A stretch of 64,000 nucleotides of DNA. It comes from Candidatus Heimdallarchaeum aukensis. Lineage in GTDB: Archaea > Asgardarchaeota > Heimdallarchaeia > Heimdallarchaeales > Heimdallarchaeaceae. Made by a program: the position numbers and the translations under genes. Under the pieces are notes generated by a model. That model did not search any database. It was not told where the DNA came from and was given only the letters and a program-made list of their open reading frames with translations. Shown here one piece after another: positions 5,349-41,524 of the stretch (position 1 is its first letter; every line of letters begins with the position of its first letter). Location of the stretch: the NCBI GenBank assembly GCA_021513695.1, contig CP084166.1, positions 544,001 through 608,000 on the forward strand, written 5' to 3'.

Positions 5349-5640
5349 ACATCTTTTTTCCTTTTCCTGTTTTTTCCCATTCACTAAACTTATCTATTAG
5401 TTCGTCAATAGCATGTGTTATCTCTTCAGTGATTTTTTCAACAATAATTAATTTGTCATCTTCAATTCGAATAGACAAAATAGAACCGAGTTCAACCAAC
5501 CATAATTCAAGTTCATTAAGATCTTCAAAACCTAATTTTTCCTGTAAAGTAATTAAAGGTATTTTAGAATTATTAGATAGGACTTTGAATAATTTTTAGC
5601 TCTTTCTATTTCAATATCGCGAGAATCAAAATAGTTCATT
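5349..5640 (-). pseudogene. Orphan 3' cassette that is a near-identical copy of the last ~95 codons of gene B (8618-8900). It encodes ...IPLITLQEKLGFEDLNELELWLVELGSILSIRIEDDKLIIVEKITEEITHAIDELIDKFSEWEKTGKGKKM* and has no start codon, with an upstream in-frame stop and a 1-nt deletion.
   Basis: Direct nucleotide comparison of 5341-5640 against 8621-8900 shows about 90-95% identity. The homology begins at the stop codon of gene A (gaagaaaaaatgaactattttgattctcg compared with gaagaaaaaataaactattttgattctcg in gene B). Confidence 0.65.
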
Positions 5641-8335: not shown

Positions 8336-8617
8336 TTTTCAACCCTAGATACTCTAACTCTAAAGTAAATGCTTATTGAACATTTTCAAGATTTTAAATT
8401 TGAGTCACTTAATATTAAACAAAATACTAATTAACTTTTTCTACTAAACTTTGATTAATGTATAATCTGCACACATTAGGATGAAAGAAACTAAACTGTT
8501 TTTAGAGAAAAAATTCAAAATAAATGAACCACATTCAGTTATAACTAAAAAAATTCAGTGATTTTAATTAATATGTATGCTTCACAAAAACAACATGAGA
8601 TTTTCAACATTCTTTTT

Positions 8618-11600: not shown

Positions 11601-11875
11601 CTGTAGCTTGAAGTTAAATTATGCTTATCAATTGAGCGATAATTATCATATTCTTTTCCATTCTCTGTTTTATTGTTATTAAATTTAGAAGCCTTTTCAT
11701 CTACATAATTATCTATTAGGTGAAAAGTTGGAGTAAGAAAAAGAAAAATAACTAAAGAAACAATAATTCTTTTATAGTTTGGAAATATATTGTTTAATAT
11801 TTTCATTTCTAGAACAAGTATATACATTACAATAAAAAAATAAAAGTTTTTCTTCACTATTTCTTTTCTTTTCAT
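8618..11875 (-). CDS. Receptor-like surface protein B (1085 aa). It has a signal anchor, a beta-helix domain, TSP3-like repeats (DSDGDGLSNLEEY, DTDGDGLNDYDE...), a TM helix, and a ~550-aa Lys/Glu-rich coiled-coil cytoplasmic domain with the type-2 C-terminal module (...ELIDKFSEWEKTGKGKKE).
   Basis: Paralogous to gene A in the beta-helix and TSP3 repeats. The C-terminal module matches the orphan cassette at 5349-5640. Confidence 0.8.
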   Translation of the reverse strand: MKRKEIVKKNFYFFIVMYILVLEMKILNNIFPNYKRIIVSLVIFLFLTPTFHLIDNYVDEKASKFNNNKTENGKEYDNYRSIDKHNLTSSYRQINHGSSCQKAIAERNNAKETRYIVHSPIEINSEEDFVKFGFPGSGTEADPYIIENYEVSTGDTEYLENSCGIVIRYVSSFVIIRNCFIQGYEVGISSETRAGGVIVENCTLLYNQYGVLVHQSGDSLIKNNYSANNSGFGILVSESSNVTIIKNTCITNGAGSIGVRDNKKIKIFYNNLEKTTNDWASCLWSSGNSEIVISDNLINGATSDGLYLERCNNVVISNNNIYNSTNFAISYGFEVSNSLIYNNLFCGTGLGGVRIGERGDYNIVFNNSFLKIQDNNEDYGTNTYWYSPTLLVGNLWEDWDGTTNFYSIYGNKIGDIFPRRVASVENDSDSDGMEDAWEIVYNLDDSKADSDGDGLSNLEEYQWMANPNFNDTDGDGLNDYDEVIFGGCIRDGDFDDDKLSDYEEVKIFHSFPYKKDSDSDGLTDYQEVIVFLTDPIDSDTDGDGLSDYEEIYAYHTDPTKNDTDDDKFNDYDEIIIYGSDPLNKLSNPRAKKIKIVLSCLLSFLVIGSVTTTILLIKKKQREKIIQLKNEYNKQFLEFNKFKEKIDEYLLQSYSPDNFKEWVNSAKQLDNIIGSYRSKFNLFKVIIGKKNIIEFEKVKREINDFIEKLSQIKTELERKITDEYILLLNKILEKKQQLLSDLQQINSYVQKNDYKKIDLDNYNKRIAKVFFEFKELSNEYLIYAKEIEKIDIRNALLSSKIYEIKNIDEQISKEELNAYINQIKIHKKQTFDEFLEIEKEIINQQDLNININYEKVKKLLEITDGFRDFFQSKLEILSKQITNEERKDLLEELQEIENKRQEVRDLIYLYPLILLDKKGEELRKEIDNLFVYSLKGKITESELYFKEFDEKLANWKENYSRVMNTETVGELSSNGIEQYNELKEKIEEKINYFDSRDVEIERAKEFFKVLSTTSEIPLFTLQEKLGFEDLNELELWLVELGSFLSIRIEDDKLIIVEKITEEITHAIDELIDKFSEWEKTGKGKKE

Positions 11876-12044
11876 TATTTCATTTTAAAGTAGTTTATTT
11901 ATCAAGTTCAACTTGCATAAAAGAATACAAATAAAACTAATACGAAAAATCGATGAAAAACATAAGATTCACAGAATGGATAAAATAAGACAGAAAAAAA
12001 ATATAATATTTCATATTTTTTTCTAAAAACTAAAATTAGTGAAA

Positions 12045-14030
12045 TTACTTCTTTTTCCCCTTTCCTGTACGCTCCCACTCACTAAACTGTTTAAGCAGAT
12101 CATCTATAGCTTCAGTCATATCTTCTGCCACGAACTCACCCTCAAGTTGTATATCGAACATTACTTCTTCTCCTTCTATCTGATTTGGTAAATCTTTAGA
12201 ATAAGCATATAACCATAGTTTCAAGACCTCTTTGTCTTCAAAGTCTAACAAAGGAGAAAGCTTGGTTAAACTTATTTTATTATAAACAGAACTAACTTTC
12301 TTAAGTCTTTCAAGTCTCATATTATTATTCTCACTATCATTAAATATTTTAGCTAACTCACCTAATAATTGTTCATTTTGTTCTAATAGTTCTTGGACAA
12401 TAACCAATTTTTCAGTAGCTAAATCTTTAATATCAGACCAGAAAGAGTCAGAAGAAGCAAATTTAGTAAAAGCTTTATGATCAATAAAAGCTACAATGTA
12501 ATTTAGGGTTGATAATATCTCTTCATAGCTGATAATTAGAGGTTTGAACTCCTTATCAGACCAATTATAGACAATGTTAGTTAACATTTCTTTAGTGTAA
12601 TCAAACAAATTTTTATAATCAATAAATTCAATTAATGAAACTACTTTATCATGAAGAGAGGAGCTGATAAAAGAGGTTATTTTTTCAAAAATCTTGTTAA
12701 ATTGTTCTTGTTTATTAGTTTTTAATCTTTTGCTGTTAGAATGAACAAAAATTAACTTTTCAAGAAGATTACCTAACTTTTCAAAATAGTCTTTTATCTC
12801 CTCTGCAGAAGAAACGAAAGAAATTAATGAAGAAATTTCTGTAAAAGTTTCCTTATACTTTCCATCTAATTCAGATTGTAAATGAATTACTTTTTCAAAT
12901 TTTTCCTTTACTTTTATTCGCATTATTAATACATGAATGGAGAATGTTACAAGAATAACAAATATAGGAAGTATAGCAAAATAACCTATTTTTTCTACTT
13001 GAGACAAATAAATATTCTTTTTTACAGGATTTTTTCCATTTTCTACTTCCCAACCGTCAAGCATACCATCTCCATCAGTGTCATTGTCCAAGGGGTCAGT
13101 AGAATAGATATGAACTTCTTGACCATCAGTCAGTCCATCTCCGTCACTGTCACTGTCCAAGGGGTCGGTATTGTAAGTATTTATCTCTTCATAGTCATCA
13201 AGTCCATCGTCGTCTGTGTCATTATCTATGGGGTTAGTACCTATTTGATACTCTTCTAAATTGGTCAAACCATCATTATCAAAATCCTCTGTAGAGTCAT
13301 CAATATTTGTGTCCAAGCCATTATCTTCTTCCCATTTGACGGGTATATTATCCTGGTCTAGATCCACATACATAGGATAAGGATCAAAGTTATTAGCGGA
13401 ACCATCTATTGGATATACTCCTGTTCCATTCCAGTCATACCAATAGTTCCCTGTTGACCCAGAATAAAACTTATTGTTTGTTCCCTCATCATACGCTTGT
13501 GAAGAACCACCTAAATTATTTTTAATTATGATGTTTTCCATAAAACTATTATTAGAGTATAACGGAGTCTTATACCATAAGAATTACTATTAGCTATAGT
13601 TTTAGAGCTAAAAATATTGTAAGAACTATTAAGAATATATACACCAATATAGCTACTGTTTGCTATGGTGTTAGAGGTAAAAATGTTATAAAAACTATAG
13701 CCTAGTTATATATTGTAGATACCACCATTTGTTATAATATTATTTATAAAAATATTATTAGAACTAGAACCGAGACTAATACAACACCAATCATTATTTA
13801 TAATTGTATTAAAAATAAAGTTGTTATTAGAACTATAACCTATTCGTATACCGTAATAACTAACAGTAATATTATTGAAAAAGAATGTGTTATTAGAGCT
13901 ATATTGAAGATTTATACCACTGGTAATTATATTTGTTATTTTATTAGAAATAAATGTATTATTAAAACTAGTTTCAATCCAAATACCATAATTCTTATTA
14001 TTTCTTTAGTACCAACAATAAGTTGACCGA
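12045..14030 (-). pseudogene. Degraded third paralog C of the receptor-like family. The annotated 498-aa ORF (12045-13541) retains the TSP3 repeats, TM helix and A-type C-terminal module, but the upstream beta-helix region (13541-14030) is broken by a frameshift and a stop codon, and the signal-peptide end is lost.
   Basis: Reverse-strand translation of 13541-14030 gives beta-helix repeats (YGIWIETSFNNTFISNKITN...) interrupted by TAA and a frame change. The ORF begins in the middle of the domain ([20 protein letters not shown], which matches [17 protein letters not shown] of gene A). Confidence 0.65.
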
Positions 14031-16826: not shown

Positions 16827-16875
16827 AAATAATTTTCTCGCTTAATTATTTTTAAACTTTTAGTGATTAAAAATC

Positions 16876-17651
16876 GGTAGTGTCTAGTTTTCTTCCGACA
16901 AAAATATTTGTGGGGACTCTAATAGTACGATATGAACATTCAAAAACTATCTACTCTTTTTAAGAGATGCAGAGTCCCCAAAAAGATAATAATAAAAGCT
17001 ATTTATGAATATATTGGTTCAAAGAATGGTTTGAGGACATAGCATTGAAGAATGGTTTAACACACCAAACATTATGGTATTGGGTAAAGAAGTTCAGGCT
17101 CTTTAGGGAAAGTTTACATAGAATTGTAGCAGAGAGAGGGGAATACCTGAGATTATAGTAGTAGATGAAACAGAGATTAAGACCTCTCAAGGCTCAATGT
17201 ATCTGTGGTTCGCATTAGATCCTTCCTTACAACAAGACTTTACTGGGTTTTAGTATTACTAAGGGACGGAGTAATCTTGAATGTTTACTAACTTTCCGTT
17301 ATTGGTTCTGGTTCAAATGTTGGTATGGGGTTTTAAGCCTCGTATTGTCGTTACAGATGCAGGGGTATGGTATCCTGTCTTACTTCGTCTCGGTATCAAA
17401 ATCTCCGTTATCAAAGGTGGTTTACGCTCCTATATTGAACTTTTTAATGCCACCCTTAAGAGTTATCGTTGGTTTCATTCTATTCTCCACTGCACTTGTC
17501 CTATCCGTGCTGTCTATGGCTCTACTCATCTTTCTGGTTTCCTTACTCTCTTTATGTTCTATTATAATTTTATTCGTCCTCATCAGAGTTTAGGACATCC
17601 TCCCCTTAGTTCCTTTTTACCTAGGAGGCGGTATAAAAACTAGACACTACC
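16876..17651 (+). mobile_element. IS6-family insertion sequence, copy 1. It is degenerate, with 16-bp terminal inverted repeats GGTAGTGTCTAGTTTT / AAAACTAGACACTACC and a perfect 9-bp direct repeat TTAAAAATC on both flanks (16867-16875 and 17652-17660).
   Basis: Aligned by eye to the intact copy at 40093-40854 at roughly 90-95% identity, with small indels. The inverted repeats and target-site duplication are read directly from the sequence. Confidence 0.85.
16929..17643 (+). pseudogene. Frameshifted IS6-family transposase gene (fragments include the ORF at 17281-17643)
   Basis: Homologous to the 232-aa transposase at 40149-40847 but carries a stop codon (ggacatagcattgaag) and indels. Confidence 0.8.
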
Positions 17652-17712
17652 TTAAAAATCAACATTAATGCTTGTAAATAGAGAAAAAAAGAAAAAATAT
17701 GTAAGTCGTCAT

Positions 17713-18723: not shown

Positions 18724-19245
18724 CTATACAGTCCGAAGGAGTAAAAGGTAGTTGTAACAGAGGAGAGAACTATAAAGAGTAGAAAGAATGGTGGAGGGTA
18801 AGTGATCAAGGATTGGGGGAAGAGAGAGTTTGAGGAGACCAAAGACGTGTTCAATACTACTACGATACTCGGGGTGATGATTATGGCGATAGAGACCAGG
18901 GTAGAGACGATGAGCTTGAACTATTGATCCGAGAGGAGGAGAGGGATAACGAGCATTACTTTTTGGGGGAATAACAGGGAAAAAGGAATGTTGTCTAAGA
19001 AGACCGACGATATTTTCTGTCCAGTTGGCACAGTCTCCATAAAATCTCAAGAGCGGTCTCAAGAGTGCAGAAGGAAGTTTCTGCCATAGTAAACCGAAGA
19101 CTTTACTATCGTGAGTGTTACTAGCAGAATGAGCTAAAGAGATTATAGCTCTGGAGGGTAAACCAACTATAAGGTGTATCTTCCAGAAAAGTTTAGTTTG
19201 GAGGTTTTCTTTAGTCCTCCTCTTGCCCACTTGAGAAAACGCCAA
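18724..19245 (-). CDS. IS5-like transposase orfB (C-terminal DDE part). It is probably expressed by frameshifting or is a pseudogene.
   Basis: SIEHVFGLLK...RYE-like C-terminal motif. Confidence 0.6.
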   Translation of the reverse strand: MAFSQVGKRRTKENLQTKLFWKIHLIVGLPSRAIISLAHSASNTHDSKVFGLLWQKLPSALLRPLLRFYGDCANWTENIVGLLRQHSFFPVIPPKSNARYPSPPLGSIVQAHRLYPGLYRHNHHPEYRSSIEHVFGLLKLSLPPILDHLPSTILSTLYSSLLCYNYLLLLRTV

Positions 19246-19670
19246 ACAGAAGCTTGACGGATTTTAAACCCTGAACTATCCACCGCCATAGCTTTCAACC
19301 CTTTTTTTTTCACTATTTCCCCACCTAAGTTTATTATCCACCGCTCTAAAATTTTACTTTCTGTCGCTCTCCACACTGCATGAAAAGTAGATTTGGAAGG
19401 AATCTTCTTCATCCACCCCTCTTCTATCAAAAAATCGCATAGAGACAACTTTTCCTCTAACTTCCTCCAAGCAATTCCTTCTATTCTAGCAATGATCGCT
19501 AAAGCCAGTATCACCCACCTTTCTGCTATTCTTTTTCTCCCTCTCTTACTTTCTCTCGGTTCCTCTTTCACCAGTTTCTTAAGGAAAGGTTCATTAATGA
19601 TTATGAATTCTCTTGCTTTGTGGAGGTCTATGATCTGAAAGAAACTCATACTTCCGACATAAACCCCCAC
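19167..19670 (-). CDS. IS5-like transposase orfA (N-terminal part)
   Basis: Lies within the inverted-repeat-bounded element and overlaps orfB by 79 nt in another frame. Confidence 0.6.
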   Translation of the reverse strand: MGVYVGSMSFFQIIDLHKAREFIIINEPFLKKLVKEEPRESKRGRKRIAERWVILALAIIARIEGIAWRKLEEKLSLCDFLIEEGWMKKIPSKSTFHAVWRATESKILERWIINLGGEIVKKKGLKAMAVDSSGFKIRQASVWRFLKWARGGLKKTSKLNFSGRYTL

Positions 19671-24562: not shown

Positions 24563-25276
24563 ATGTTTCATGACTTTCAAGTTCAAGATGGTATTAACCT
24601 TTACAATTCCAATGGTTTTATTATAAAAAATAATACCATTTCCTATGGCGGGTATGGACTATTTGTATCTGAATCTTCACACGGGGTATATACTAATAAT
24701 ACTTGTATAGAAAATAGCAAATATGGTGTTTATATAAAATATGGATACAACATTTCTATCAATGAAAACAACTGCAGCGCTAATGATCAAGGTATAAATC
24801 TTTACAACTCTTCTACAATTTATATCCACAATAATAGCATAAGTAAAAACACTATTGGACTGACTTTTGATCTCTCTAATCATTCAATCATCACTTTTAA
24901 TTCATTTGAGAAGAATGAACAATATGCAATAATTATGGATTCTTCATCTTCTTCTAATCTCATCCATCATAATACGTTTATTGACAACAACTTGCAAGGA
25001 ACATCTCAAGCTTGTGATAATGGTCATAATAATACTTGGTATGACCAATCAACAAAAACTGGTAATTATTGGTCTGATAGAAAAGGGATAGGAAAATATT
25101 ACATAGATGGTAATAGTAAATCGTATGATAAATACCCCCTAAAAAATCTCCCTCAACAATGTGCTGAAAAAACTTCTATTGATTTTCTCATCATTCTGAT
25201 CTCTTTTCTCTCTACAGTTATTTTGTCTTATGTCATAAGAAACAAGTATGCATTCAGACAATTACGATTTAGATAG
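24563..25276 (+). pseudogene. 5'-truncated duplicate of the beta-helix surface protein gene at 32042-33466 (corresponding to its region ~32780-33466)
   Basis: About 93% nucleotide identity by direct comparison. The fragment begins mid-domain at ...DFQVQDGINLYNS and abuts the subtilase fragment on the opposite strand. Confidence 0.65.
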
Positions 25277-25279
25277 GTT

Positions 25280-25560
25280 TTATCCATCAGCTAATCCAAT
25301 CACTTCTCCTCTCTTAGTGAGATAAACATCAATTTCCGCTGCTTTTTTTGCTATAACATAGTCAATAGGTAGTATATCAAATCTAGATAAGTCCTGCTCA
25401 GCTTCCTCAAGTTTATTTGAAAATATAGCTGGCTTGTTACTATAAAGATAGTATATACCGCGTAAATATTCTTGGGCAGTAATCACAGATATGGCTTTAT
25501 AGCTTGGCCCCCTATCAATTTGCTTTGCTTTTTCTAAAGCATTTGGAACAGAGTTTGATA
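25280..25560 (-). pseudogene. Possible PIN-domain (VapC-like) fragment, truncated at its 3' end by the duplicated segment
   Basis: ...FDILPIDYVIAKKAAEIDVYLTKRGEVIGLADG* resembles the middle of a PIN domain. The ORF stops 4 nt from the junction. Confidence 0.3.
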
Positions 25561-25567
25561 CATATAT

Positions 25568-25840
25568 ATGATTAAGAATATGATTAAGATGGCGAAGAAT
25601 ATAGCAGTCTCTGATGAACTCTACAAATTGCTGAAACGGTTAAAACGTCCTGGTGAAAGTTTTACTGATGTGATTTTAAGATCAATAAAACATTCAACCT
25701 CTATAATGGATATTGCAGGTAAAAAAACAATACCCCTAGAAGAGTGGGAAAAACTCAAAAAATTATTTGAAGCGAAAGAAATAGAGGATTACAAGTGTAA
25801 AAGAGATTTGCTTGAGAAGGCTAATAATGTATCTTATTGA
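25568..25840 (+). CDS. Small antitoxin-like protein (archaeal VapB/CopG-like). The probable true start is the MAKNIA codon at 25589.
   Basis: MAKNIAVSDELYKLLKRLKRPGESFTDVILRSI is characteristic of small archaeal antitoxin-like proteins. Confidence 0.5.
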   Translation: MIKNMIKMAKNIAVSDELYKLLKRLKRPGESFTDVILRSIKHSTSIMDIAGKKTIPLEEWEKLKKLFEAKEIEDYKCKRDLLEKANNVSY

Positions 25841-25916
25841 CACAGATTTTATAATATATATTCATATGTATTATTAAAAATTTCCTAATCACATGCTCCA
25901 AAAAAAATAAAGAATG

Positions 25917-26981
25917 TTAATTATCATAGAATCGTAAATAGAAATAACTGCTAGGATCACCATCTTCAAGTACAGGAACAGAAGTGTAGGCATCAACATA
26001 ATCTTTTATTGTGTCAAAAACATTTTCTAAGTCAAGGTCAAAATTTATCCATTCACAACTGGAGCTATCCCAGTATTGTTTTATAAAATAACCTGTAAGA
26101 GCTCCATGGTAGTTGCTTCCATCCGGCATATAATTAAAGAATTTAGCTTGAGTAGTTTCATTGTATCTACACGCTGCAATCATAAGTACATTCTCTGAGG
26201 CTTGAATAGACATTATTTCATTCATTCCTCCAGAAAAGCATGAATCAATAAAAACAAGTAATTTTGATTCATAAGTCGTAGTTGAATCAGAACAAGCAAA
26301 TTTATCAAAAAGTATCTTTAAATTATAGTCATAAAGAAATTCATCTATTCCATAAGCTTGAACACTATGCTCTTCTTCATTATAACTATATCCATGCCCC
26401 GAGTAAATAAAGAATATTAAGTCATTTGGATCAGAATTTTCAACAACATTAGCTGTAACATCGTAAATATTTTGTAGTGTTGCTTGATGATAATCAAAGT
26501 TAAAGATACCACCTCCAGGACCTGATGTGTCAGGTAAATCAAAAAGACTTTCTCGATTTACAGATTCTTCGTGGCCAAGTAGGTGAACATTCATAGAAAA
26601 AGAAACAATATCATAAGTTTCTGGTTGTTGATCAAATAATTCAAAAAGAGCTGAAGCCCACATACACCATAAAATTGCATCTTCCCACGCACCAGCACAA
26701 TATTGTCCAGTTTGATCTTGACCAATACCGATAATAATAAACTCTGCCTTAATTTTATTGTCAGTGCCACTAGGATAGTCTATTACTGGAATAGTTGGTC
26801 CATTAACTCCTCCCCCATCACCGGTACCAGGATCAAGTTCAAAACCTTTTGTCAATAAGACTTCTTGAAAGAGTGTATTATTTATACTAGAACATAGTAA
26901 TGTCGATAAAATAAATAACGTAATAAAAATATTTTTATTAATTTTATTCACAGACCTATTAAAAAAATAACAACATCCCAT
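25917..26981 (-). CDS. Secreted caspase-fold cysteine peptidase (C14/C13-like)
   Basis: Signal peptide present. His-Gly dyad in FFIYSGHGY and catalytic Cys in VFIDSCFSGG. Confidence 0.6.
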   Translation of the reverse strand: MGCCYFFNRSVNKINKNIFITLFILSTLLCSSINNTLFQEVLLTKGFELDPGTGDGGGVNGPTIPVIDYPSGTDNKIKAEFIIIGIGQDQTGQYCAGAWEDAILWCMWASALFELFDQQPETYDIVSFSMNVHLLGHEESVNRESLFDLPDTSGPGGGIFNFDYHQATLQNIYDVTANVVENSDPNDLIFFIYSGHGYSYNEEEHSVQAYGIDEFLYDYNLKILFDKFACSDSTTTYESKLLVFIDSCFSGGMNEIMSIQASENVLMIAACRYNETTQAKFFNYMPDGSNYHGALTGYFIKQYWDSSSCEWINFDLDLENVFDTIKDYVDAYTSVPVLEDGDPSSYFYLRFYDN

Positions 26982-30967: not shown

Positions 30968-32026
30968 ATGAGCAATAATAAACATACTACAATCGCATTA
31001 ATAATAGTCATATTGTCATTAGCTCTTGTTTTTATTAAACCAACAGGAGCTGGTTGGGTAGAATGGGAAGGGAAAGTGTATAATGAATGGAATAATGGAG
31101 TAAGTGGAGCAATAGTAAAACTAAAACAGAATAATGTTGTTGTTAAAACAACAACCACAGATAGTAATGGGGAATATTCTCTCATATACTATACTTCTAG
31201 CTATGCTACATACAAAATTACAGTGACTAAGGAGGATTATAATAGTCAAACAAAGACTGTTCCCAAGACTTCCCTTGGAGAACCCTGGGTTGTAGATTTT
31301 AATATTCGCTATGTTATGAAATATGCTGTGATCGTGGGAATAGAAGATTATGCTTATCTTAATGATTTACAGTATACAGAAAATGATGCAGATGCTTGGT
31401 ACGACTTCTTATGTGATACATCTTTAGATTTCGATGAAGTGGATCTATATAAAGGTAGTAATGCATATGAATCCGCCATCAAAAACGCTTTAGAAAATAT
31501 GGTAAATATAGCTGATAAAGGTGACATTATTGCATTTATTTTCTCAGGGCATGGTTATAAAAAAAGTAGTACTGAACATGCCCTTTCTATGTGGGATGCT
31601 GATGGTAATGGTAACACAGGTTACTTATATGATTCAGAACTAGCAACTATTTTAACTAGTTCAGAAGCTGAAAGAATATTTCTATTTTTTGACTGTTGTT
31701 ACAGCTATGGAATGCAAGAGGAGTTGGCAGAGATAGGAAGCAAAGATCATATCCTTCTTACTAGTTCTTGTGATAAAAATGAAATTTCCTATTATGACAA
31801 AGCAAATGAAAAGAGTTGTTGGACGCAAAGTTTTTTAGTAGAATCATGGATTAATAATAATGAGCCAGAAGATCCTGTAATAGATGTTTTCAACGATGCA
31901 ATAATTTATTTCAGAGCCCATATAACTAATGGAGATGATTATTACTCAACGGATCAGAATCCGCAATTGTGGAACCCTTATGGAAACAATTTTCGATTAA
32001 CTAAGTATGGAATCTCACCACCATAA
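30968..32026 (+). CDS. Secreted caspase-fold peptidase with an N-terminal carboxypeptidase-regulatory-like (transthyretin-like) domain
   Basis: VKTTTTDSNGEYSL motif. His-Gly in IFSGHGY and Cys in LFFDCCYSYG. Confidence 0.6.
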   Translation: MSNNKHTTIALIIVILSLALVFIKPTGAGWVEWEGKVYNEWNNGVSGAIVKLKQNNVVVKTTTTDSNGEYSLIYYTSSYATYKITVTKEDYNSQTKTVPKTSLGEPWVVDFNIRYVMKYAVIVGIEDYAYLNDLQYTENDADAWYDFLCDTSLDFDEVDLYKGSNAYESAIKNALENMVNIADKGDIIAFIFSGHGYKKSSTEHALSMWDADGNGNTGYLYDSELATILTSSEAERIFLFFDCCYSYGMQEELAEIGSKDHILLTSSCDKNEISYYDKANEKSCWTQSFLVESWINNNEPEDPVIDVFNDAIIYFRAHITNGDDYYSTDQNPQLWNPYGNNFRLTKYGISPP

Positions 32027-32041: not shown

Positions 32042-33466
32042 ATGAAACTAAATAAAAAAGTGTTGACTATAATATTGTGCACAATCATCTTACTGTTAGT
32101 AGGTACTTCAAATACAACTAGAGCAGTTCATCAAGAAAAGAACAGATTCGCACATACATTACACACCAATATTAGTTTAATCACTCCAATTAATATCACC
32201 TCTGATGAAGATTTCTCTAAGTATGCATATGATGGTTCAGGAAGAGAAGAGGATCCATATATAATTGAGGGATATGAAATAACAGGGCAGGATGTTACAG
32301 GGATATACATAGCGAATACTACGAAATATTTCATCATACGTGACTGTGTTATTGAAGGTACTAGTCAAGGAATTCATATTGTAAATGTGTCGGATGGGAC
32401 AGCATTAATCACAAATAATATTTGTAAAAATATAGTAAACCAAGGTATAATCGTTGAAAACACTAATTATGCGATATTACATAACAATACTTGTAGTGAA
32501 TCTAATATGTATGGCATCCATAGCCGATTCTCAGATTACCTTATATTGGAACAGAATACTTGTAATAAAAACGGAATGTGTGGAATTTTTGTAGATTACT
32601 CAACTTCGACTGTGATTAGGAAGAATATTGTTATTGATAATGTGCTCTCAGGTATTATTGTACAAGATACAGTAAAAACTCTCATCTCCCAGAATTATTG
32701 TTTTGATAATGATGGCATGGGTGGAATAGTGCTCTCAAGATCTCTAAATGCGACAATTATAAACAATATTTGTGTTGATGACTTTCAAGTTCAAGATGGT
32801 ATTAATCTTTACAATTCAGATGGTTTTATTATAAAAAATAATACCATTTCCTATGGCAGGTATGGAATATTTGTATCTGAATCTTCACACGGGGTATATA
32901 CTAATAATACTTGTATAGAAAATAGCAAATATGCTGTTTATATAAAATATGGATACAACATTTCTATCAATGAAAACAACTGCAGCGCTAATGAGCAAGG
33001 AATAAATCTTTACAACTCTTCAACAATTTATATCCACAATAATAGTATAAGTAAAAACACTATTGGACTGACTTTTGATCTCACGAATCATTCAATCATC
33101 ACTTTTAATTCATTTGAGGAGAATGAACAATATGCAATAATTATAGATTCTTCATCTTCTTCTAATCTCATCCACCATAATACGTTTGTTGACAACAACT
33201 TGCAAGGAACATCTCAAGCTTGTGACAATGGCAATAATAATACCTGGTATGACCAATCGACAAAAACTGGTAATTATTGGTCTGATAAAAAAGGAGGAAA
33301 ATATTACATAGATGGTAGTAGTAAATCGTATGATAAATATCCCCTAAAAAATCCCCCTCAACAATTTGCTGAAAAAACTTCTATTGATTTTTTCATCATT
33401 CTTATATCTTTTCTCTCTTCTACAGTTATTATGTCTTATGTCAAAAGAAACAAGTATGCTTTATGA
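32042..33466 (+). CDS. Beta-helix (PbH1/NosD-like) repeat surface protein with a C-terminal TM anchor (474 aa). It is a paralog of the beta-helix domain of receptor genes A and B.
   Basis: Repeated right-handed beta-helix units (...NNxCxxN..GI.L...). GTSQACDNG...GNYWSD cap and C-terminal hydrophobic helix. Confidence 0.7.
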   Translation: MKLNKKVLTIILCTIILLLVGTSNTTRAVHQEKNRFAHTLHTNISLITPINITSDEDFSKYAYDGSGREEDPYIIEGYEITGQDVTGIYIANTTKYFIIRDCVIEGTSQGIHIVNVSDGTALITNNICKNIVNQGIIVENTNYAILHNNTCSESNMYGIHSRFSDYLILEQNTCNKNGMCGIFVDYSTSTVIRKNIVIDNVLSGIIVQDTVKTLISQNYCFDNDGMGGIVLSRSLNATIINNICVDDFQVQDGINLYNSDGFIIKNNTISYGRYGIFVSESSHGVYTNNTCIENSKYAVYIKYGYNISINENNCSANEQGINLYNSSTIYIHNNSISKNTIGLTFDLTNHSIITFNSFEENEQYAIIIDSSSSSNLIHHNTFVDNNLQGTSQACDNGNNNTWYDQSTKTGNYWSDKKGGKYYIDGSSKSYDKYPLKNPPQQFAEKTSIDFFIILISFLSSTVIMSYVKRNKYAL

Positions 33467-33727
33467 CAATTATGAGTGATTCGAATGTTAAGGTTATTAC
33501 CCAGATGTTAAATTCTAGTTAAGCTAGTTATTCAGCTAGTGCAGCTGCTTTAGGAAGCATTAAATCTTTGTTTATTGTTCTTCTTTTAGTTTTCTACTTT
33601 GGCTTAAAGTTTAAATATTCTATATGAATGAAAAAAATCAATTTTACTCTTGTAGGACTTGCAATCATTTTATCTGGATGCGATTAAGAATTTTTTAATA
33701 ATACATATGAATGTATATGTGATTAAG

Positions 33728-33937
33728 ATGGCTAAGAATATAGCAATCTCTGATGAACTCTACAAATTGCTGAAACGTTTAAAACGCCCTGGTGAAAGTT
33801 TTACTGATGTGATTTTAAGATCAATAAAACATTCTACCTCTATAATGGATATTACAGGTAAAAAAACAATACCCCTAGAAGAATGGGAAAAACTCAAGAA
33901 ATTATTTGAAATGAAAGAAATAGAGTTACAAGCGTAA
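33728..33937 (+). pseudogene. Second, 3'-truncated copy of the antitoxin-like gene (duplicate of 25589-25840)
   Basis: About 95% nucleotide identity. A deletion gives a premature stop (…KEIELQA*). Confidence 0.45.
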
Positions 33938-34166: not shown

Positions 34167-35501
34167 TTATTTTAGTAATAACTGTAAAGCTGAAATTTGT
34201 TTCTGTTTAGGGTCTATAGTCTTATTTTTAAAGAAAATCCCACTATTTAACATCTCTTCATAGATAATTACTCCCAATATGTGTTTATTTATTGTTTCTG
34301 TTTTTTCGAAACATTTGTCTACTATTGGTTTAATCTCTTTGTAAAGTTCATACTTTCTAATTTCATCAGAACTATAATTGTGAAAATAGTAATCAATAAA
34401 TTGTATTATAATTACTGCATTTTTTTGGTTTAACATTTGATTCTTTTCTAATTTTTCCATTAATCTTCGTTTCAATTGACCTAATTTTGCCTTTATTCGT
34501 TTAGTCTCAACAGTTGATGGAAATTTTATTTGATTTGAAATTTGAATACATTTCTTACTTTTAATTTCGAAGACAAAACAAGATTTAATTGGAGATTCAA
34601 GAAGTTTTGTAACAGAAATTTCTTTTAAGAATTTTTTACCTTTTTCTGATTTTTTTAGTTTATATAATGTGTTTAATAAACTCACTTTATCTGACGAAAA
34701 GTAATTTTCGCCAAAGATTCTTTCCATACTATTTAGATATTGATATAAGGATAAATTTTTAGAACCCATAAAATCTTCTTCAAATAATTCCCAAGAATTT
34801 TCCAAAATTAATAGAAGAAGTTTGTCTATTTCTTCTAATACTAGCTTAGTTATGTACTCTTTATCAAACTTATTTTTATAAATTATTTTTTCTAAATCAA
34901 CTTCTAAGCTGACAGAATAATTGAGAGGGATTTTTTGAATGGCTTTTCTACATATTTCATCAAAACTCTCTTCTAATATTTTATCAACCTTATTCTCATA
35001 AAGTGAAGTGACTTCTAAATTAAATTCAATATTTTGAATGAAAATTCGAAAATCATGATTGAAATCTGAAATATCTCCATAAATAATCTTTGATACATGT
35101 TTATTTTTTAATAATTGGATATAAAGTTGGAACTCAATATATTTACTAAAGTTATTATTTCTAGTAAAACTCCTCATTTTTGATATTATTTTCTTCTGAA
35201 TTCTGCTACTTCTTTCAAACAGATTTATTTCTTTTGTAAGAAGATTTTCTATTTCGTCTAGAATATATTTATACTTTGAAGAATTACGAGTATTTTTATT
35301 TGATAAGGTCTTATTTTCAGTATAAGCTAAATTAGCTATGTTAAAAAAAATATTATGATTATAATGTTTTATAGGTACATCAACATCAGAAAAAACTCTA
35401 TCCAAACTTGGATATTTTATTATCACATCTTTTGCCTTTGTAATAAATTCATTTCGATATAACTTATCATTTTTTTTACCGCAATATGAAGAAACAACCA
35501 T
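34167..35501 (-). CDS. Hypothetical protein (444 aa) downstream of hsdR on the same strand
   Basis: Lys/Glu-rich and mostly helical, with no recognisable motif. Confidence 0.45.
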   Translation of the reverse strand: MVVSSYCGKKNDKLYRNEFITKAKDVIIKYPSLDRVFSDVDVPIKHYNHNIFFNIANLAYTENKTLSNKNTRNSSKYKYILDEIENLLTKEINLFERSSRIQKKIISKMRSFTRNNNFSKYIEFQLYIQLLKNKHVSKIIYGDISDFNHDFRIFIQNIEFNLEVTSLYENKVDKILEESFDEICRKAIQKIPLNYSVSLEVDLEKIIYKNKFDKEYITKLVLEEIDKLLLLILENSWELFEEDFMGSKNLSLYQYLNSMERIFGENYFSSDKVSLLNTLYKLKKSEKGKKFLKEISVTKLLESPIKSCFVFEIKSKKCIQISNQIKFPSTVETKRIKAKLGQLKRRLMEKLEKNQMLNQKNAVIIIQFIDYYFHNYSSDEIRKYELYKEIKPIVDKCFEKTETINKHILGVIIYEEMLNSGIFFKNKTIDPKQKQISALQLLLK

Positions 35502-35645: not shown

Positions 35646-36056
35646 TTATTTTCTATTGTATTTTTCTGTTAGCATTCTTTTTAACCACAAATTTAGGAAT
35701 GAATTTAGTGAATCTCTACTTTCAGTATCTACCATGCTTTTTGATGGATAAACAACACTAAACAAATACTGATCTTTATAAGATAAAACTTCTGCAATTT
35801 TTTTTAATGAATCTATACGAATTACTACCTCTGGGTCAGGAACCAAATCATCATTTTGTAAAAAATAGTGACCCATTGATAGTATCATCTCGCTTTCATC
35901 ACGAGATAAAATACTAATATGTAACTCCATCAAATTTCCAGAATACAAAATTAGTTTTTCTTCAATTTCTTCAACATTTGGAATTAATTTCATCAAGAGG
36001 TCATAGTTTTTATGAAAGATAGTTTCAATTGTTGTAATTATCTGTTTATCTGACAC
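35646..36056 (-). CDS. Hypothetical protein (136 aa) 60 bp downstream of hsdR on the same strand
   Basis: No recognisable motif. Confidence 0.45.
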   Translation of the reverse strand: MSDKQIITTIETIFHKNYDLLMKLIPNVEEIEEKLILYSGNLMELHISILSRDESEMILSMGHYFLQNDDLVPDPEVVIRIDSLKKIAEVLSYKDQYLFSVVYPSKSMVDTESRDSLNSFLNLWLKRMLTEKYNRK

Positions 36057-36116: not shown

Positions 36117-39100
36117 TTACACCGCTGTTGCCCACTCTTCACCAAACAACTGTGCTTGCTCCATTATTAATTTAATCGCATTAGGAGTTTGATCTGGTGG
36201 ATATTTATACTTTCGCAATAGTTTACGAATCTCAATACGCATGCGAGCTTGAACACTTTTTCTTACTGTGAAATCAATTGTAGCAGAATTTCGAACCTTA
36301 GCAACTAACTCTTTTGCTATTTTCTTTAATGTTTCATCACCCATTTCTCTTACAGCACTTTCATTTGTAGCTAAAGCATCATAAAAAGCAACTTCATCAT
36401 CATTTAATCCAAGTTCTTCTCCCTTTTTGAAAGCTTTTTGCATATCTTTCGCTAATTGAATCAATTCCTCTAAAATTGCAGCAGAAGCTATTGTACGATT
36501 GATATATTTGTTAATAGATTTCTGAAGTAATTCCTCAAAAGAACGAGATTGAACTAAATTCTTTTTAGCTCTAGAACGAATTTGATCCTTCAACAATTTA
36601 TTTAAAACCTCAACAGCTAAATTCTTTTGTTTTAATCCTCTAACTTCTTCAAGAAATTTATCAGAAAGAATAGAAATTTCTGGTTTATCCAATCCTGCTG
36701 CAGAAAAAATGTCTATAACATCTTCTGAAATAACAGCTCTAGAGATTAATTGTCTAATTGCATAATCAACTCTTTCTTTACGTTCTTTGGAAGGAGTAGT
36801 AGCTTTTACAAAACCAGCACGTACAGCTTGGAAAAAAGCTAAATCATCTCGAATAGCTAAAGCTTCTTCATGAGGAATAGCAAGAGAAAAGGCTTTATTT
36901 AGTGCTGAAAGGTTATCTAAAAACCTTTTTTTAGCACTTTCTGGAGTTTCATTAGGTAAATTAAGAATATGTTCCATAGCAGCAGGAAGTAATTGTAATC
37001 TTTGTAAAGCACTTCCTGTTTTAAACAAAGAATAATCAAAATTGTAAAACATATCTGAAACAATTTCATAATATGTTTTCATTAATTCTACAGCTTTTTC
37101 TTGAGGAATAGCTGTTTGTTCTCTTGACTCTACATTAGAATACCTAGATAATGCTTGCTTAAGAAAATAACCTATACCAATATAATCGACAATAAGACCT
37201 CCAGGTTTATCTTTATATACTCTATTTACTCTAGCTATCGCTTGCATTAAATTGTGTCCTTGCATTGGCTTATCTACATACATTGTATGCATACTAGGCA
37301 CATTAAAACCTGTTAACCACATATCTCTTACAATAACAAGTTTAAGTTCGTCCTCAGGATCTTTCATTCGATTTTCAATAATTTTTCTTTTTCTTTTAGG
37401 CCTAATGTGTGAACGCAATAATTGATCATCAGCAGCAGAACCGCTAATTACAACTTTAATGAAACCTTTTTGATCATCATTAGAATGCCACTCAGGCCTT
37501 AGTTTTATTATTTCATTATACAATAAAGCACAAATCCTGCGAGACATACAAACAATCATACCCTTTCCATCTATAATCTCAAGTCTTTTTTCAAAATGAT
37601 TTACAATATCCTCAGCTACTTCACGTAACCTATCGGGATCAGAAACAAGCCTTTCGACTCTTGACCACTTAGATTTCAATTTTTCTCGAGCATATTCTTC
37701 TTCATCTTCTGTGATTTCATCAAATTCTTCATCGATTTGACCCTTCAATTCTTCATTAAACTTAATTTTAACTAACCTTGATTCATAATAAATAGGAACA
37801 GTAGTTTTATCTCTTATTGCTTGTGAAATATCATAAATGCTAATATAATTACCAAAAACATGAATCGTATTTCTGTCGACAAGTTCTACAGGAGTAGCAG
37901 TAAAAGCAATAAAAGAAGCATTAGGCAGAGCTTGACGAATATAAGCAGCAAAACCTTCTTTTAATGAACCTTTTTCAGAAAGTTTTTTTCCAAAAGAATA
38001 ATGACTTCTATGAGCCTCATCAGCAATAACAATGATATTCCTCCTCTCAGATAAAAGAGGATATTGTGCATTCTCTTCAGGAAGAAATTTTTGTATTGTA
38101 GTGAAAATTACACCACCACCGGTTGTTTTAAGCAAATCCTCAATATTATCTTTTGTCGCTTCATGATTTTTTGGATTGTACCTCCTTGCTGTGGCTTGAA
38201 TAGAAGTTTGACGAAGAAGATCCCTTGATAAAGTAAAAGTTGTAAAAAGTTGGTCATCTAAATCGTTTCTATCAGTAATAACAACGACAGTAGGATTGTT
38301 AAGTAGCTGGATTAACTTTGCGGTATAAAATAACATTGTAAGACTCTTACCAGAACCTTGAGTATGCCAAACAACACCAATCTTTTGATCACCATCACTT
38401 CCAGTAGCTCGTAAAGTTTCCTTAATAGCACGATTAACAGCATGATATTGATGATAAGCAGCAGATTTCTTGACTATTGTTCTACCATCGTCTTCAAAAG
38501 TAATAAAAAATCTGATGTAATCTAAAAAACGAGAAGGTTCTAAAATACCACGAAATAAAACTTCAAGAGATAAGATTGATTGGTCAGCTAATATCTCTCC
38601 CTCAATAGTGCGCCAGGGAGTAAAACGCTCCCAATTAGCAGATAAACTGCCAGCTTTAGATTCATAACCATCACTAATAACAATTAACTCATTAGTCCTA
38701 AATAAAGAAGGAATTTCTTTTTTATAAGTCTGAATTTGATTATAAGCATCTCTTGTAGTCGTTTCTTCTTTAGATGGGTTCTTAAGCTCAATAACTACTA
38801 AAGGAATACCATTAACAAAGAGAACAATATCAGGTCGGTGATTGTGTTTGTCAGAACCAACACCTTCTATAACAGTAAATTGATTTACAGCTAAAAAATC
38901 ATTATTCTCAGGATTCTCAAAATCAATAACTCGTACTATATCTCCCTTTACACGACCATCATGGTAATAAGAGACTTCTACACCATCAACTAACATTCTA
39001 TGAAAAGAACGATTGTTTGTTAATAAATCAGGAGAATCAATACGGTTGAGTTTCTGCAAAACATCTTCAAGCACTTCTTTAGGTTTATCAGGATTAAGTT

Positions 39101-39272
39101 TATGTAAAGCTGATTTTAGTCTATCTTTAAGAATAATCTCACTATATGATAACCTTTCAGGATTATTTCCTGTTGGTGCAATATCTGGACCAAACTTGGT
39201 ATCATAACCTAATTCTCTTAAAATTTCCATAGATGCTTCTTCTAACTCTTTTTCAGTTATTTTCATAATCAA
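36117..39272 (-). CDS. hsdR: Type I restriction enzyme R subunit (HsdR)
   Basis: 1051 aa. Superfamily-2 helicase motifs are present (GSGKS-type Walker A in WHTQGSGKSLT, DEAH-type IVIADEAHRS). The C-terminal domain is typical of HsdR. Confidence 0.9.
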   Translation of the reverse strand: MIMKITEKELEEASMEILRELGYDTKFGPDIAPTGNNPERLSYSEIILKDRLKSALHKLNPDKPKEVLEDVLQKLNRIDSPDLLTNNRSFHRMLVDGVEVSYYHDGRVKGDIVRVIDFENPENNDFLAVNQFTVIEGVGSDKHNHRPDIVLFVNGIPLVVIELKNPSKEETTTRDAYNQIQTYKKEIPSLFRTNELIVISDGYESKAGSLSANWERFTPWRTIEGEILADQSILSLEVLFRGILEPSRFLDYIRFFITFEDDGRTIVKKSAAYHQYHAVNRAIKETLRATGSDGDQKIGVVWHTQGSGKSLTMLFYTAKLIQLLNNPTVVVITDRNDLDDQLFTTFTLSRDLLRQTSIQATARRYNPKNHEATKDNIEDLLKTTGGGVIFTTIQKFLPEENAQYPLLSERRNIIVIADEAHRSHYSFGKKLSEKGSLKEGFAAYIRQALPNASFIAFTATPVELVDRNTIHVFGNYISIYDISQAIRDKTTVPIYYESRLVKIKFNEELKGQIDEEFDEITEDEEEYAREKLKSKWSRVERLVSDPDRLREVAEDIVNHFEKRLEIIDGKGMIVCMSRRICALLYNEIIKLRPEWHSNDDQKGFIKVVISGSAADDQLLRSHIRPKRKRKIIENRMKDPEDELKLVIVRDMWLTGFNVPSMHTMYVDKPMQGHNLMQAIARVNRVYKDKPGGLIVDYIGIGYFLKQALSRYSNVESREQTAIPQEKAVELMKTYYEIVSDMFYNFDYSLFKTGSALQRLQLLPAAMEHILNLPNETPESAKKRFLDNLSALNKAFSLAIPHEEALAIRDDLAFFQAVRAGFVKATTPSKERKERVDYAIRQLISRAVISEDVIDIFSAAGLDKPEISILSDKFLEEVRGLKQKNLAVEVLNKLLKDQIRSRAKKNLVQSRSFEELLQKSINKYINRTIASAAILEELIQLAKDMQKAFKKGEELGLNDDEVAFYDALATNESAVREMGDETLKKIAKELVAKVRNSATIDFTVRKSVQARMRIEIRKLLRKYKYPPDQTPNAIKLIMEQAQLFGEEWATAV

Positions 39273-40092
39273 TTTCCGCCAAAAATTTTTCTATATTAGT
39301 AATTCGAAGCCTACCTGAGATAAGTTGAGGAAGTAGAATATCTCTTAATTTAATTAAAATATTAATTTCATCCTTATTTTTTCTAATTTTTTCAAAGATT
39401 GGGTCAATTATTTCTCTAAACTTTAGTAAAGTAGTCTTATCAGGTTTTATAATCGGAATCCTAAAAAGGTTACTTTGATTAATTTTTAATTGTACTGCAC
39501 CAGTTATATAAGGTCTAATGTTTATATTCATGAGATGTAACATAACAAATTCTGTACAAAATTCATTTTTTCCTTGTATTACATGAACATGATTATTCGC
39601 CCAAAATTTTCCATGTACATATTGTAAGATGGGTTTTTCATTGTTATCAATAACTGAACCATCTTCTGCCATTAAGAGAAAAATGCCATCAAAAATGTAA
39701 TCATCAATATAGTCTAAAATACTAGCTGCCCCATAATATGGATAAATACCTTTTCTTACCTTTCTTTCTATTTTTGATAAAGGAATTCTTTTTGAATCAT
39801 ATATACTTATGACTTCTTTGAGCGTCCCAACTTCCCATCCTTTTGGTATTTCTTTATCTACTTCCTCATTATATTCAAATTCGCCATCTTTGAAAGGTTC
39901 AAAATCAATAAACCAAGATCTGAAGATAGTTTGGGCTATCTCTTCTAAAACTTTGTTCATCTTCTGATTGAGTTCAATTTTTTGATCTATAGAGCTTAAT
40001 AATTTACTAATAAATTTTTGTATTCTTAAATTAGGTATAGGAAGTGGGATATTTTCAATAATTGAGGTATTTAAGGAAGGTCTAGTAGTACC
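39253..40092 (-). pseudogene. hsdS: Type I restriction-modification specificity subunit (HsdS), truncated at its 5' end by IS6 insertion. Only the central conserved region, the second target-recognition domain and the C-terminal conserved region remain.
   Basis: The annotated ORF (39253-39960) starts MNKVLEEIAQTIFRSWFIDFEP, which is the HsdS central conserved region. The frame remains open upstream (…ENIPLPIPNLRIQKFISKLLSSIDQKIELNQK) up to the IS right end at 40093. The 235 aa are about half the normal HsdS length. Confidence 0.75.
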
Positions 40093-40854
40093 GGTAGTGT
40101 CTAGTTTTCTTCCGACAAAAATATTTGTGGGGACTCTAATAGTAAGATATGAACATTCAAAAACTATCTACTCTTTTTAAGAGATGCAGAGTCCCCAAAA
40201 AAATAATAATAAAAGCTATTTATGAATATATTGGTTCAAAGAATGGGTTGAGGACAGTAGCATGGAAGAATGGTTTAACGCATCAAACATTATGGTATTG
40301 GGTAAAGAAGTTCAGGCTCTTTAGGGAAAGTTTACATAGAGTTGTAGCAGAGAGAGGGGGAATACCAGAGATTATAGTAGTAGATGAAACAGAGATTAGG
40401 ACCTCTCAAGGCTCAATATATCTGTGGTTCGCGTTAGATCCTTACAACAAGACTTTACTGGGTTTTAGTATTACTAAAGGACGGAGTAATCTTGAATGTT
40501 TACTAACTTTCCGTTATTGGCTCAAATGTTGGGGTTTTAAGCCTCGTATTGTCGTTACAGATGCAGGAGTATGGTATCCTGTCTTACTTCGTCTAGGTAT
40601 CAAAATCTCCGTTATCAAAGGTGGTTTACGCTCCTATATTGAACGTTTTAATGCTACTCTTAAGAGTTATCGTTGGTTTCATTCTATTCTCCACTGCACT
40701 TGTCCTATCCGTGCCGTCTATGGCTCTACTCATCTTTCTGGTTTTCTTACTCTCTTTATGCTCTATTATAATTTCGTTCGTCCTCATCAGAGCTTAGGAC
40801 ATCCTCCCCTTAGTTCCTTTTTACCTAGGAGGTGGTATAAAAACTAGACACTAC
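40093..40854 (+). mobile_element. IS6-family insertion sequence, copy 2 (intact). It has 16-bp terminal inverted repeats GGTAGTGTCTAGTTTT / AAAACTAGACACTACC and no flanking direct repeat.
   Basis: Inverted repeats read directly. The flanks (ctagtagtacc and agtcaaaaatag) differ from each other. Confidence 0.85.
40149..40847 (+). CDS. IS6-family DDE transposase (232 aa)
   Basis: VVDETEI...RIVVTDAGVWY...SYIERFNATLKSYR fits the IS6 D-D-E pattern. Confidence 0.85.
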   Translation: MNIQKLSTLFKRCRVPKKIIIKAIYEYIGSKNGLRTVAWKNGLTHQTLWYWVKKFRLFRESLHRVVAERGGIPEIIVVDETEIRTSQGSIYLWFALDPYNKTLLGFSITKGRSNLECLLTFRYWLKCWGFKPRIVVTDAGVWYPVLLRLGIKISVIKGGLRSYIERFNATLKSYRWFHSILHCTCPIRAVYGSTHLSGFLTLFMLYYNFVRPHQSLGHPPLSSFLPRRWYKN

Positions 40855-41122
40855 CAGTCAAAAATAGAAAAAAAATATAAAAGGCTTTTCTAAATAACAA
40901 CATTAGTTAAAGTATGTGGATTCTTACTAACAACCTTTGAATATAATTCATTTTTTATTTTTTGAATTATCTTCGCTCTATATTCCTCTTCTTTTTTGAA
41001 TCTAAATTAAACAATATAATTTTGTTCAACAGATAATTTTATATTGGGTTATAACCCATTACCGCCCAGAAGTCTAAAAAATAAAATAAGAGGCGATAAA
41101 AATAGGATATGGATCAGGAAGA

Positions 41123-41524
41123 ATGCGTGGTGGAGGAAGAGGAAGAGGAGGAGGATTTGGATTAGGAGCAGGAGGAGCATGTATTTGTCCAGTGTGTGGT
41201 ACAAAAGCTGCTCATGCAAGAGGGGTACCTTGTTTTCAATCTCGATGCCCACAATGTGGAGCACCAATGACTAGAGCAGAAGCTTATGCCGGCCCCCAAC
41301 CACAGAATAGTAAAAACGTACAAGAAGAGAAAGAATACAAATTTGATACAGCAGCAAAACCGCATATAGACCAATCTAGATGTAAGGGGTGTGCTTTATG
41401 CATTAATAGTTGTCCTTTTAATGTTATTAGAATGGAAAATGGTCATGCAATTATTGATTCTTCACGCTGCAGAAGTTGCGGAGTATGTATTTCTTCTTGT
41501 CCTGAAGGGGCGATAGTTTATTAG
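41123..41524 (+). CDS. Small protein with a Gly/Arg-rich N-terminus, a zinc-ribbon (CICPVCG...CPQCG) and 2x[4Fe-4S] ferredoxin motifs
   Basis: CKGCALCINSCP and CRSCGVCISSCP clusters. It is convergent with the nuoI-like gene. Confidence 0.6.
   Translation: MRGGGRGRGGGFGLGAGGACICPVCGTKAAHARGVPCFQSRCPQCGAPMTRAEAYAGPQPQNSKNVQEEKEYKFDTAAKPHIDQSRCKGCALCINSCPFNVIRMENGHAIIDSSRCRSCGVCISSCPEGAIVY

Follow-up and report, generated by a model that had tools for sequence, protein, structure and literature searches.

Type I restriction-modification (R-M) enzymes need an M2S assembly of HsdM and HsdS to bind DNA and to recruit HsdR, the restriction endonuclease/translocase subunit. We describe here a type I R-M locus from a Heimdallarchaeum-like Asgard archaeon, located in a 64-kb stretch of DNA that was analysed as a whole (hereafter the window), in which an intact hsdR gene is preceded by a truncated hsdS gene that ends at a copy of a multicopy insertion sequence (IS) resembling the IS6 family. 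The window has a G+C content of about 30%, and the closest relatives of its genes are found in Heimdall-group Asgard archaea. We consider the locus, with a probability of roughly three in four, to be the dead remnant of an hsdM-hsdS-hsdR operon that was cut by an IS-associated deletion. Members of the IS6 family are 700–890 bp long, with one transposase open reading frame (ORF) spanning the element, are flanked by 8-bp repeats and share 40–94% transposase identity in ISfinder; they transpose replicatively, and when this happens within one molecule, DNA is deleted or inverted and the flanking repeats disappear (PMC7986276).

The closest related locus (L001), carried by the Heimdallarchaeota metagenome-assembled genome (MAG) 18H4_34, consists of hsdM (528 aa), hsdS (436 aa), a PIN_12 gene and hsdR; the extra PIN_12 gene, which separates hsdS from hsdR in that locus, is missing from the window locus. 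Three further loci (L085, L086 and L088) have the order hsdM-hsdS-hsdR with overlapping genes, the hsdS/hsdR overlap resembling that of the window locus, and two short contigs (L084 and L087) hold hsdM-hsdS. Altogether, hsdM stands directly upstream of hsdS in six of six related loci, and the M-S-R order recurs in all four that also hold hsdR, so that M-S-R is the ancestral order. Compared with these intact relatives, the window locus has the IS in place of hsdM and the first ~147 codons of hsdS. Given the gene order in the relatives, the missing genes belong exactly at the present position of the IS, and hsdM together with the 5' third of hsdS would have been lost from the window locus.

The hsdR gene (36117–39266, minus strand, 1049 aa) is intact, as a first-pass annotation made from the sequence of this DNA had stated. 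The ORF finder reports its frame as 36117–39272 (minus strand) with a TTG at 39272; the ATG at 39266 is the likelier start, because the protein on record in an independent assembly begins there. The product joins a PD-(D/E)xK nuclease to an SF2 motor and ends in a helical C-terminal domain, parts represented in Pfam by HSDR_N, SWI2_SNF2, T1R_D3-like and T1RH-like_C matches, and the motifs of the subunit are all found (nuclease D..ExK, QxxxY, GSGKS, DEAH, TATP and QAIARVNR). It scores 617 bits against the TIGR00348 hsdR model (cut-off 284) and matches PADLOC REase_I over its full length with 1154 bits. The same four-domain architecture, at 70–80% identity, characterizes HsdR in the type I systems of L001, L085, L086 and L088; in a global alignment with the L001 protein, identity is 80% with 2 gap columns out of 1051. 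An identical HsdR is encoded on a Logan contig (L081) from the sample SRR15988954.

The remnant of hsdS (39253–40092, minus strand) is a frame of 279 codons that abuts the first base of the IS, at 40093, and whose stop end overlaps the start of hsdR by 14 nt. Its sole start codon, an ATG at 39960, initiates an ORF of 235 aa (39253–39960) and sits in the middle of the central conserved helix; the frame is open through 40092 and for 26 further codons inside the IS, with no additional start codon. The remnant matches Pfam Methylase_S, and its 279 residues align from the first one onwards both to the PADLOC Specificity_I profiles, from position ~131 to the end, and to residues 148–436 of the L001 HsdS, while in the M. 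jannaschii HsdS, whose structure is solved (1YF2), residues 148–240 are matched by residues 2–98 of the remnant. The alignment with 1YF2 leaves the last ~10 residues of the first target-recognition domain (TRD1) in the remnant; the central conserved region, TRD2 and the distal conserved region at the C-terminus follow. Missing are about 147 residues at the N-terminus, most of TRD1 among them, and the break falls within the domain; of the two TRDs and two conserved regions that make up a full HsdS, only the equivalent of residue 148 to the end is present. Beside the intact relatives, the central and C-terminal conserved regions are still recognisable, whereas TRD2 is only ~32% identical, a variability expected for specificity domains.

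According to the first-pass annotation, hsdS keeps the central region, TRD2 and the C-terminus in 235 aa. The truncation and the 235-aa ORF are borne out, but the 279-codon frame also holds the last residues of TRD1. The same annotation had the IS cutting the gene at 40093, which agrees with a frame open up to the border; however, the IS end that touches hsdS is the left, transposase-proximal repeat and had been wrongly named the right one, and the IS ends at 40855 and not at 40854. A natural half-size hsdS was considered as well and is ruled out by homology that begins inside TRD1, at the IS border. The junction itself (40089–40096) reads as an 8-bp palindrome, TACC/GGTA, and the four bases that precede the IS also occur as the final four of its right end; this was judged to be a chance occurrence, because the HsdS homology extends to the IS border. 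Elsewhere, in the related locus L085, a 91-aa ORF located just past hsdR on the opposite strand (6480–6755, minus strand) shares 51% identity with the C-terminus of the window HsdS; it is a partial hsdS in inverted orientation, as known from phase-variable specificity shufflons.

No hsdM accompanies these genes in the window. A tblastn search with three related HsdM proteins returned nothing below E = 0.35, a profile hidden Markov model built from 117 HsdM sequences gave a best E-value of 2.7 against all six-frame ORFs, and no protein combining N6_Mtase and HsdM_N is encoded with the system in the window. The 36 kb on the left of the locus and the 23 kb on its right contain neither hsdM nor a second piece of hsdS, in agreement with the earlier statement that hsdM is absent from either side. 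Among the best 120 matches listed for the L001 HsdM, at least nine HsdM clusters have an identity of at least 72% to it. The sample of origin was traced for four representatives from Logan and one additional cluster member, the remaining close clusters being identified by source only (JGI, NCBI or ENA); the relatives traced in this way (P0138, P0139, P0141, P0144 and P0259) derive from a JGI metagenome and from four sequencing runs other than SRR15988954, and all belong to intact M-S or M-S-R loci. No HsdM from SRR15988954 is found among them, though the same protein database holds the HsdR of that sample. These results argue with moderate strength for a true loss of hsdM over its relocation.

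The IS copy at the hsdS break (copy 2; 40093–40855, plus strand) is 763 bp long and bounded by perfect 16-bp terminal inverted repeats (GGTAGTGTCTAGTTTT). Its transposase gene (40149–40847, plus strand, 232 aa) is intact and encodes a helix-turn-helix (HTH) followed by the DDE triad D79/D138/E165 and K172; the protein is 97% identical to one from Candidatus Heimdallarchaeum endolithica. The element is multicopy, with 19 members in the transposase cluster formed at 90% identity. The other copy in the window (copy 1; 16876–17651, plus strand) is decayed by two 1-bp deletions and by insertions of 4 bp and 11 bp, and it is ~96% identical to copy 2 over the shared sequence (95–98% for the repeat families).

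The two copies differ in their flanks, as had been noticed in the first reading of the sequence. Copy 1 lies between perfect 9-bp repeats (TTAAAAATC, at 16867–16875 and 17652–17660), a nine-of-nine match with a chance of ~1.3e-5 at this base composition, whereas the flanks of copy 2 (AGTAGTACC and AGTCAAAAA) agree at only four of nine positions and thus contain no duplication. Ten full-length copies were compared: besides the two in the window, Ca. H. endolithica supplied one and metagenome contigs (68–93% identity) the remaining seven. Perfect 9-bp direct repeats surround five of them (TTAAAAATC, GATTAGTGC, AAAAATAAC, AGATAAGCT and TTTATAGTT), and the other five, copy 2 and those on metagenome contigs L089, L111, L130 and L167, have no duplication. 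A 9-bp duplication is therefore the norm for this element, and it is absent at the hsdS copy. The duplication-free half of the copies fits replicative transposition or frequent recombination between IS copies, and may partly reflect chimeric assembly at repeats.

Although the first-pass annotation assigned the element to IS6 outright, it is better described as a probable distant relative of that family. Pfam gives weak rve and rve_3 matches to the transposase and DDE_Tnp_IS240 at E = 0.036. In NCBIfam, IS6 is the best model for all seven members tested, with 49 bits against a cut-off of 125, IS3 and IS1 being not far behind. A tblastn search of 72,556 plasmids matched 66 records, in which every annotated gene under a match is an IS6-family transposase (22–27% identity), and hhalign aligned the DDE residues with those of the haloarchaeal IS6 member ISHbo1 at 98% probability and of a clostridial IS6 member at 96.6%. 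The strongest single piece of evidence for the kinship is the likeness of the terminal repeat (GGTAGTGTCTAGTT) to that of ISHbo1 (GGCACTGTCTAGTT), with 12 of 14 positions identical. With its 763 bp and its single ORF (40149–40847), the element has the size and organization of IS6 members such as IS26, IS257 and ISHbo1, in which one ~230-aa transposase of the HTH-DDE(7)K type fills the element, and its short perfect repeats of 16 bp likewise start with GG. That many copies are devoid of flanking repeats is also as expected for replicative elements (PMC7986276). However, in each of the five copies with a duplication this measures 9 bp, while the family norm is 8 bp, as confirmed in the control ISHbo1 (AAATAGGC); transposase identity to IS6 members is 22–30%, against 40–94% inside the ISfinder family, and the scores fall below the NCBIfam and Pfam cut-offs. 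In terms of strict membership the element departs from IS6 in one trait and is borderline in another; it appears to act like IS6 as far as can be seen. The IS1 family, suggested by a GGnnnTG end and the 9-bp duplication, was rejected: its model scores 27 bits against 49 and matches fewer members, and both the terminal repeat and hhalign point to IS6.

Since copy 2 has no 9-bp duplication, it did not arise by simple insertion. In the reading that we favour, a multicopy IS6-like element would have come to abut hsdS at codon ~148 through a deletion associated with the IS, in which the promoter of the operon, hsdM and the first third of hsdS, with most of TRD1, would have disappeared. The DNA on one side of copy 2 would have been lost, and either side may have been the original insertion site. 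Such a deletion would have proceeded by intramolecular replicative transposition in cis or by recombination of one IS copy with another in direct orientation; as the products are identical, this sequence does not tell the two routes apart. The form of the product, a single IS without flanking repeats abutting a truncated gene, is the same as in IS26-type adjacent deletion or excision of a translocatable unit, but no intermediate, excised circle or pre-deletion allele is seen here, and recombination of the RecA/RadA type would look alike. The adjacent deletion or cointegrate resolution put forward in the first-pass annotation thus agrees with the data insofar as an IS-associated deletion fits them, although they do not separate it from plain homologous recombination between IS copies, or from an inversion. 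The intact hsdR and the intact, 97–98% conserved IS copy suggest that the event is recent.

Assembly of the M2S methylase and of the R2M2S nuclease depends on HsdM, so that in its absence the intact hsdR and the 235-aa hsdS stub would be left inactive. As the first-pass annotation had also suspected, the locus is most likely inactive in both restriction and modification, a prediction that follows from the absence of HsdM from the window.

On its right side the IS is followed by 267 nt of intergenic DNA (40856–41122) with no R-M remnant, then by a 4Fe-4S ferredoxin gene (41123–41524) and a group-4 hydrogenase-like gene cluster. The similarity of the best relative of this region, the Heimdallarchaeaceae MAG L083, covers only 44021–41018 (the hydrogenase-ferredoxin block, 88% identical) and ends 163 nt before the IS; as this block is all that the two have in common, no empty site or pre-IS state can be defined from L083. 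The closest IS copy comes from Ca. H. endolithica, which is absent among the hsdR relatives and thus offers no comparison of the locus, and none of 120 metagenome contigs carrying an IS end is joined to hsdS, hsdM or either flank in the window. Both IS junctions are real in the reads of an independent short-read assembly: the Logan contig of SRR15988954 with the exact HsdR ends 29 nt inside the left IS repeat, and another from the same sample (L209) begins with the last 27 nt of the IS and is identical to the window from there into the ferredoxin gene. The link across copy 2, between the hsdS and the ferredoxin junctions, rests on the source assembly of the window.

Several considerations weigh against a deletion that left a dead operon. 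The deletion and its extent have been reconstructed without an ancestor or an IS-free strain of the locus, and the negative HsdM result for SRR15988954 rests on Logan gene calls and on the best 120 matches listed. The DNA searched amounts to 64 kb, so that hsdM could lie beside another IS copy, as the product of an inversion, or an HsdM could be provided by an unrelated type I system. Finally, four of the five duplication-free IS copies are on metagenome contigs and could be assembly chimeras, a caveat that extends in principle to the window.

Inversion or translocation is the alternative that survives best, even if we consider it unlikely. Intramolecular replicative transposition in trans, or recombination of two IS copies lying in inverted orientation, would have carried hsdM and the beginning of hsdS to a different chromosomal position, beside a second IS copy without a duplication; the operon would have been split, with its genes surviving. 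The abundance of the element, the lack of duplications around half of its full-length copies and the small part of the genome examined are all compatible with this scenario, and IS6-type intramolecular transposition is known to yield inversions as well as deletions (PMC7986276). Yet neither of the missing pieces is present in the 36 kb and 23 kb on the two sides, the sole other IS copy in the window is not the partner, being flanked by a perfect duplication of its own, and the traced relatives include no HsdM of this lineage from the sample whose HsdR is in the database.

An assembly artefact is less probable again. In that case the 763-bp repeat would have been bridged wrongly, the hsdS and ferredoxin junctions would belong to different IS copies, and the insertion into hsdS might have been a simple one with a duplication. 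The short-read Logan contigs do end 27–29 nt inside the IS at both junctions, leaving the scaffolding of the source assembly as the only link across a repeat of a multicopy family. After a simple insertion, however, the sample should still contain hsdM and the beginning of hsdS, yet the close relatives of HsdM that were traced include none from it; in addition, the published genomes of the genus were closed with long reads (PMC8813620), and the window presumably originates from one of them.

We attach still lower credence to a functional half-HsdS, in which the 235-aa product, with half of the central region, TRD2 and the C-terminal region, would dimerise and recognise a symmetric site together with this HsdR and an HsdM encoded elsewhere. 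Engineered truncated HsdS proteins of the type IC enzymes EcoDXXI and EcoR124I can form active dimers that recognise palindromic sites, and this precedent, along with the fully intact hsdR, speaks for the possibility. Against it, the frame runs open into the IS and its homology starts inside TRD1, as in a broken gene rather than a designed half gene, the sole start codon lies within the conserved central helix, the operon promoter and hsdM are missing, and the window contains no identified partner. The suggestion in the first-pass annotation that a half-HsdS system might be waiting for a partner is accordingly improbable, the break lying inside TRD1 and not at a domain boundary. Weakest of all is the notion that the IS event acted as a specificity switch, in which a single-TRD stub transcribed from the IS end would dimerise, borrow the HsdM of another type I locus and operate with the intact HsdR; if true, this would amount to a new palindromic-site restriction activity in an Asgard archaeon.

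Other features of the window were noted alongside the locus. Immediately downstream of hsdR are a 136-aa DUF6908/DUF1249 protein gene (35646–36056, minus strand) and a gene for a 444-aa protein without a family match (34167–35501, minus strand), in DNA of only 24% G+C; neither gene adjoins hsdR in the related loci. A segmental duplication of ~1.2 kb (24567–25786 and 32775–33925; 89–96% identity, 8.2 kb apart) takes in a VapB-like antitoxin gene and the 3' portion of a gene for a beta-helix (NosD-like) surface protein, and a pair of 41-nt inverted repeats is located at 25854–25894 and 33678–33718. In the same variable region as the R-M remnant, two caspase-like (Peptidase_C14) genes (25917–26981, minus strand, and 30968–32026, plus strand) flank the gene for a 920-aa FG-GAP/beta-propeller protein. 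Beyond the right end of IS copy 1, at a distance of about 1 kb, two overlapping ORFs of 173 and 167 aa (18724–19670, minus strand), the first of which matches DDE_Tnp_1, look like the remnant of a second, different transposase. Three large ORFs (899, 1085 and 498 aa; 5636–13541, minus strand) are made of 69-nt (23-aa) tandem repeat units common to all three and probably encode repetitive surface proteins. A tRNA-bounded island was considered and rejected, there being no tRNA genes in the window.

For annotation purposes, the locus should be labelled as a type I R-M remnant, composed of hsdR and an hsdS pseudogene, and not as an active defence system of this Asgard genome. The decay of an R-M locus through an IS is a routine event, and the importance of this case beyond annotation is small. 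The only mildly new point is the existence of an Asgard-specific (Heimdallarchaeia), distant branch of IS6 that generates 9-bp duplications and is often found without flanking repeats, and this branch is relevant to how repeats reshape these repeat-rich genomes.

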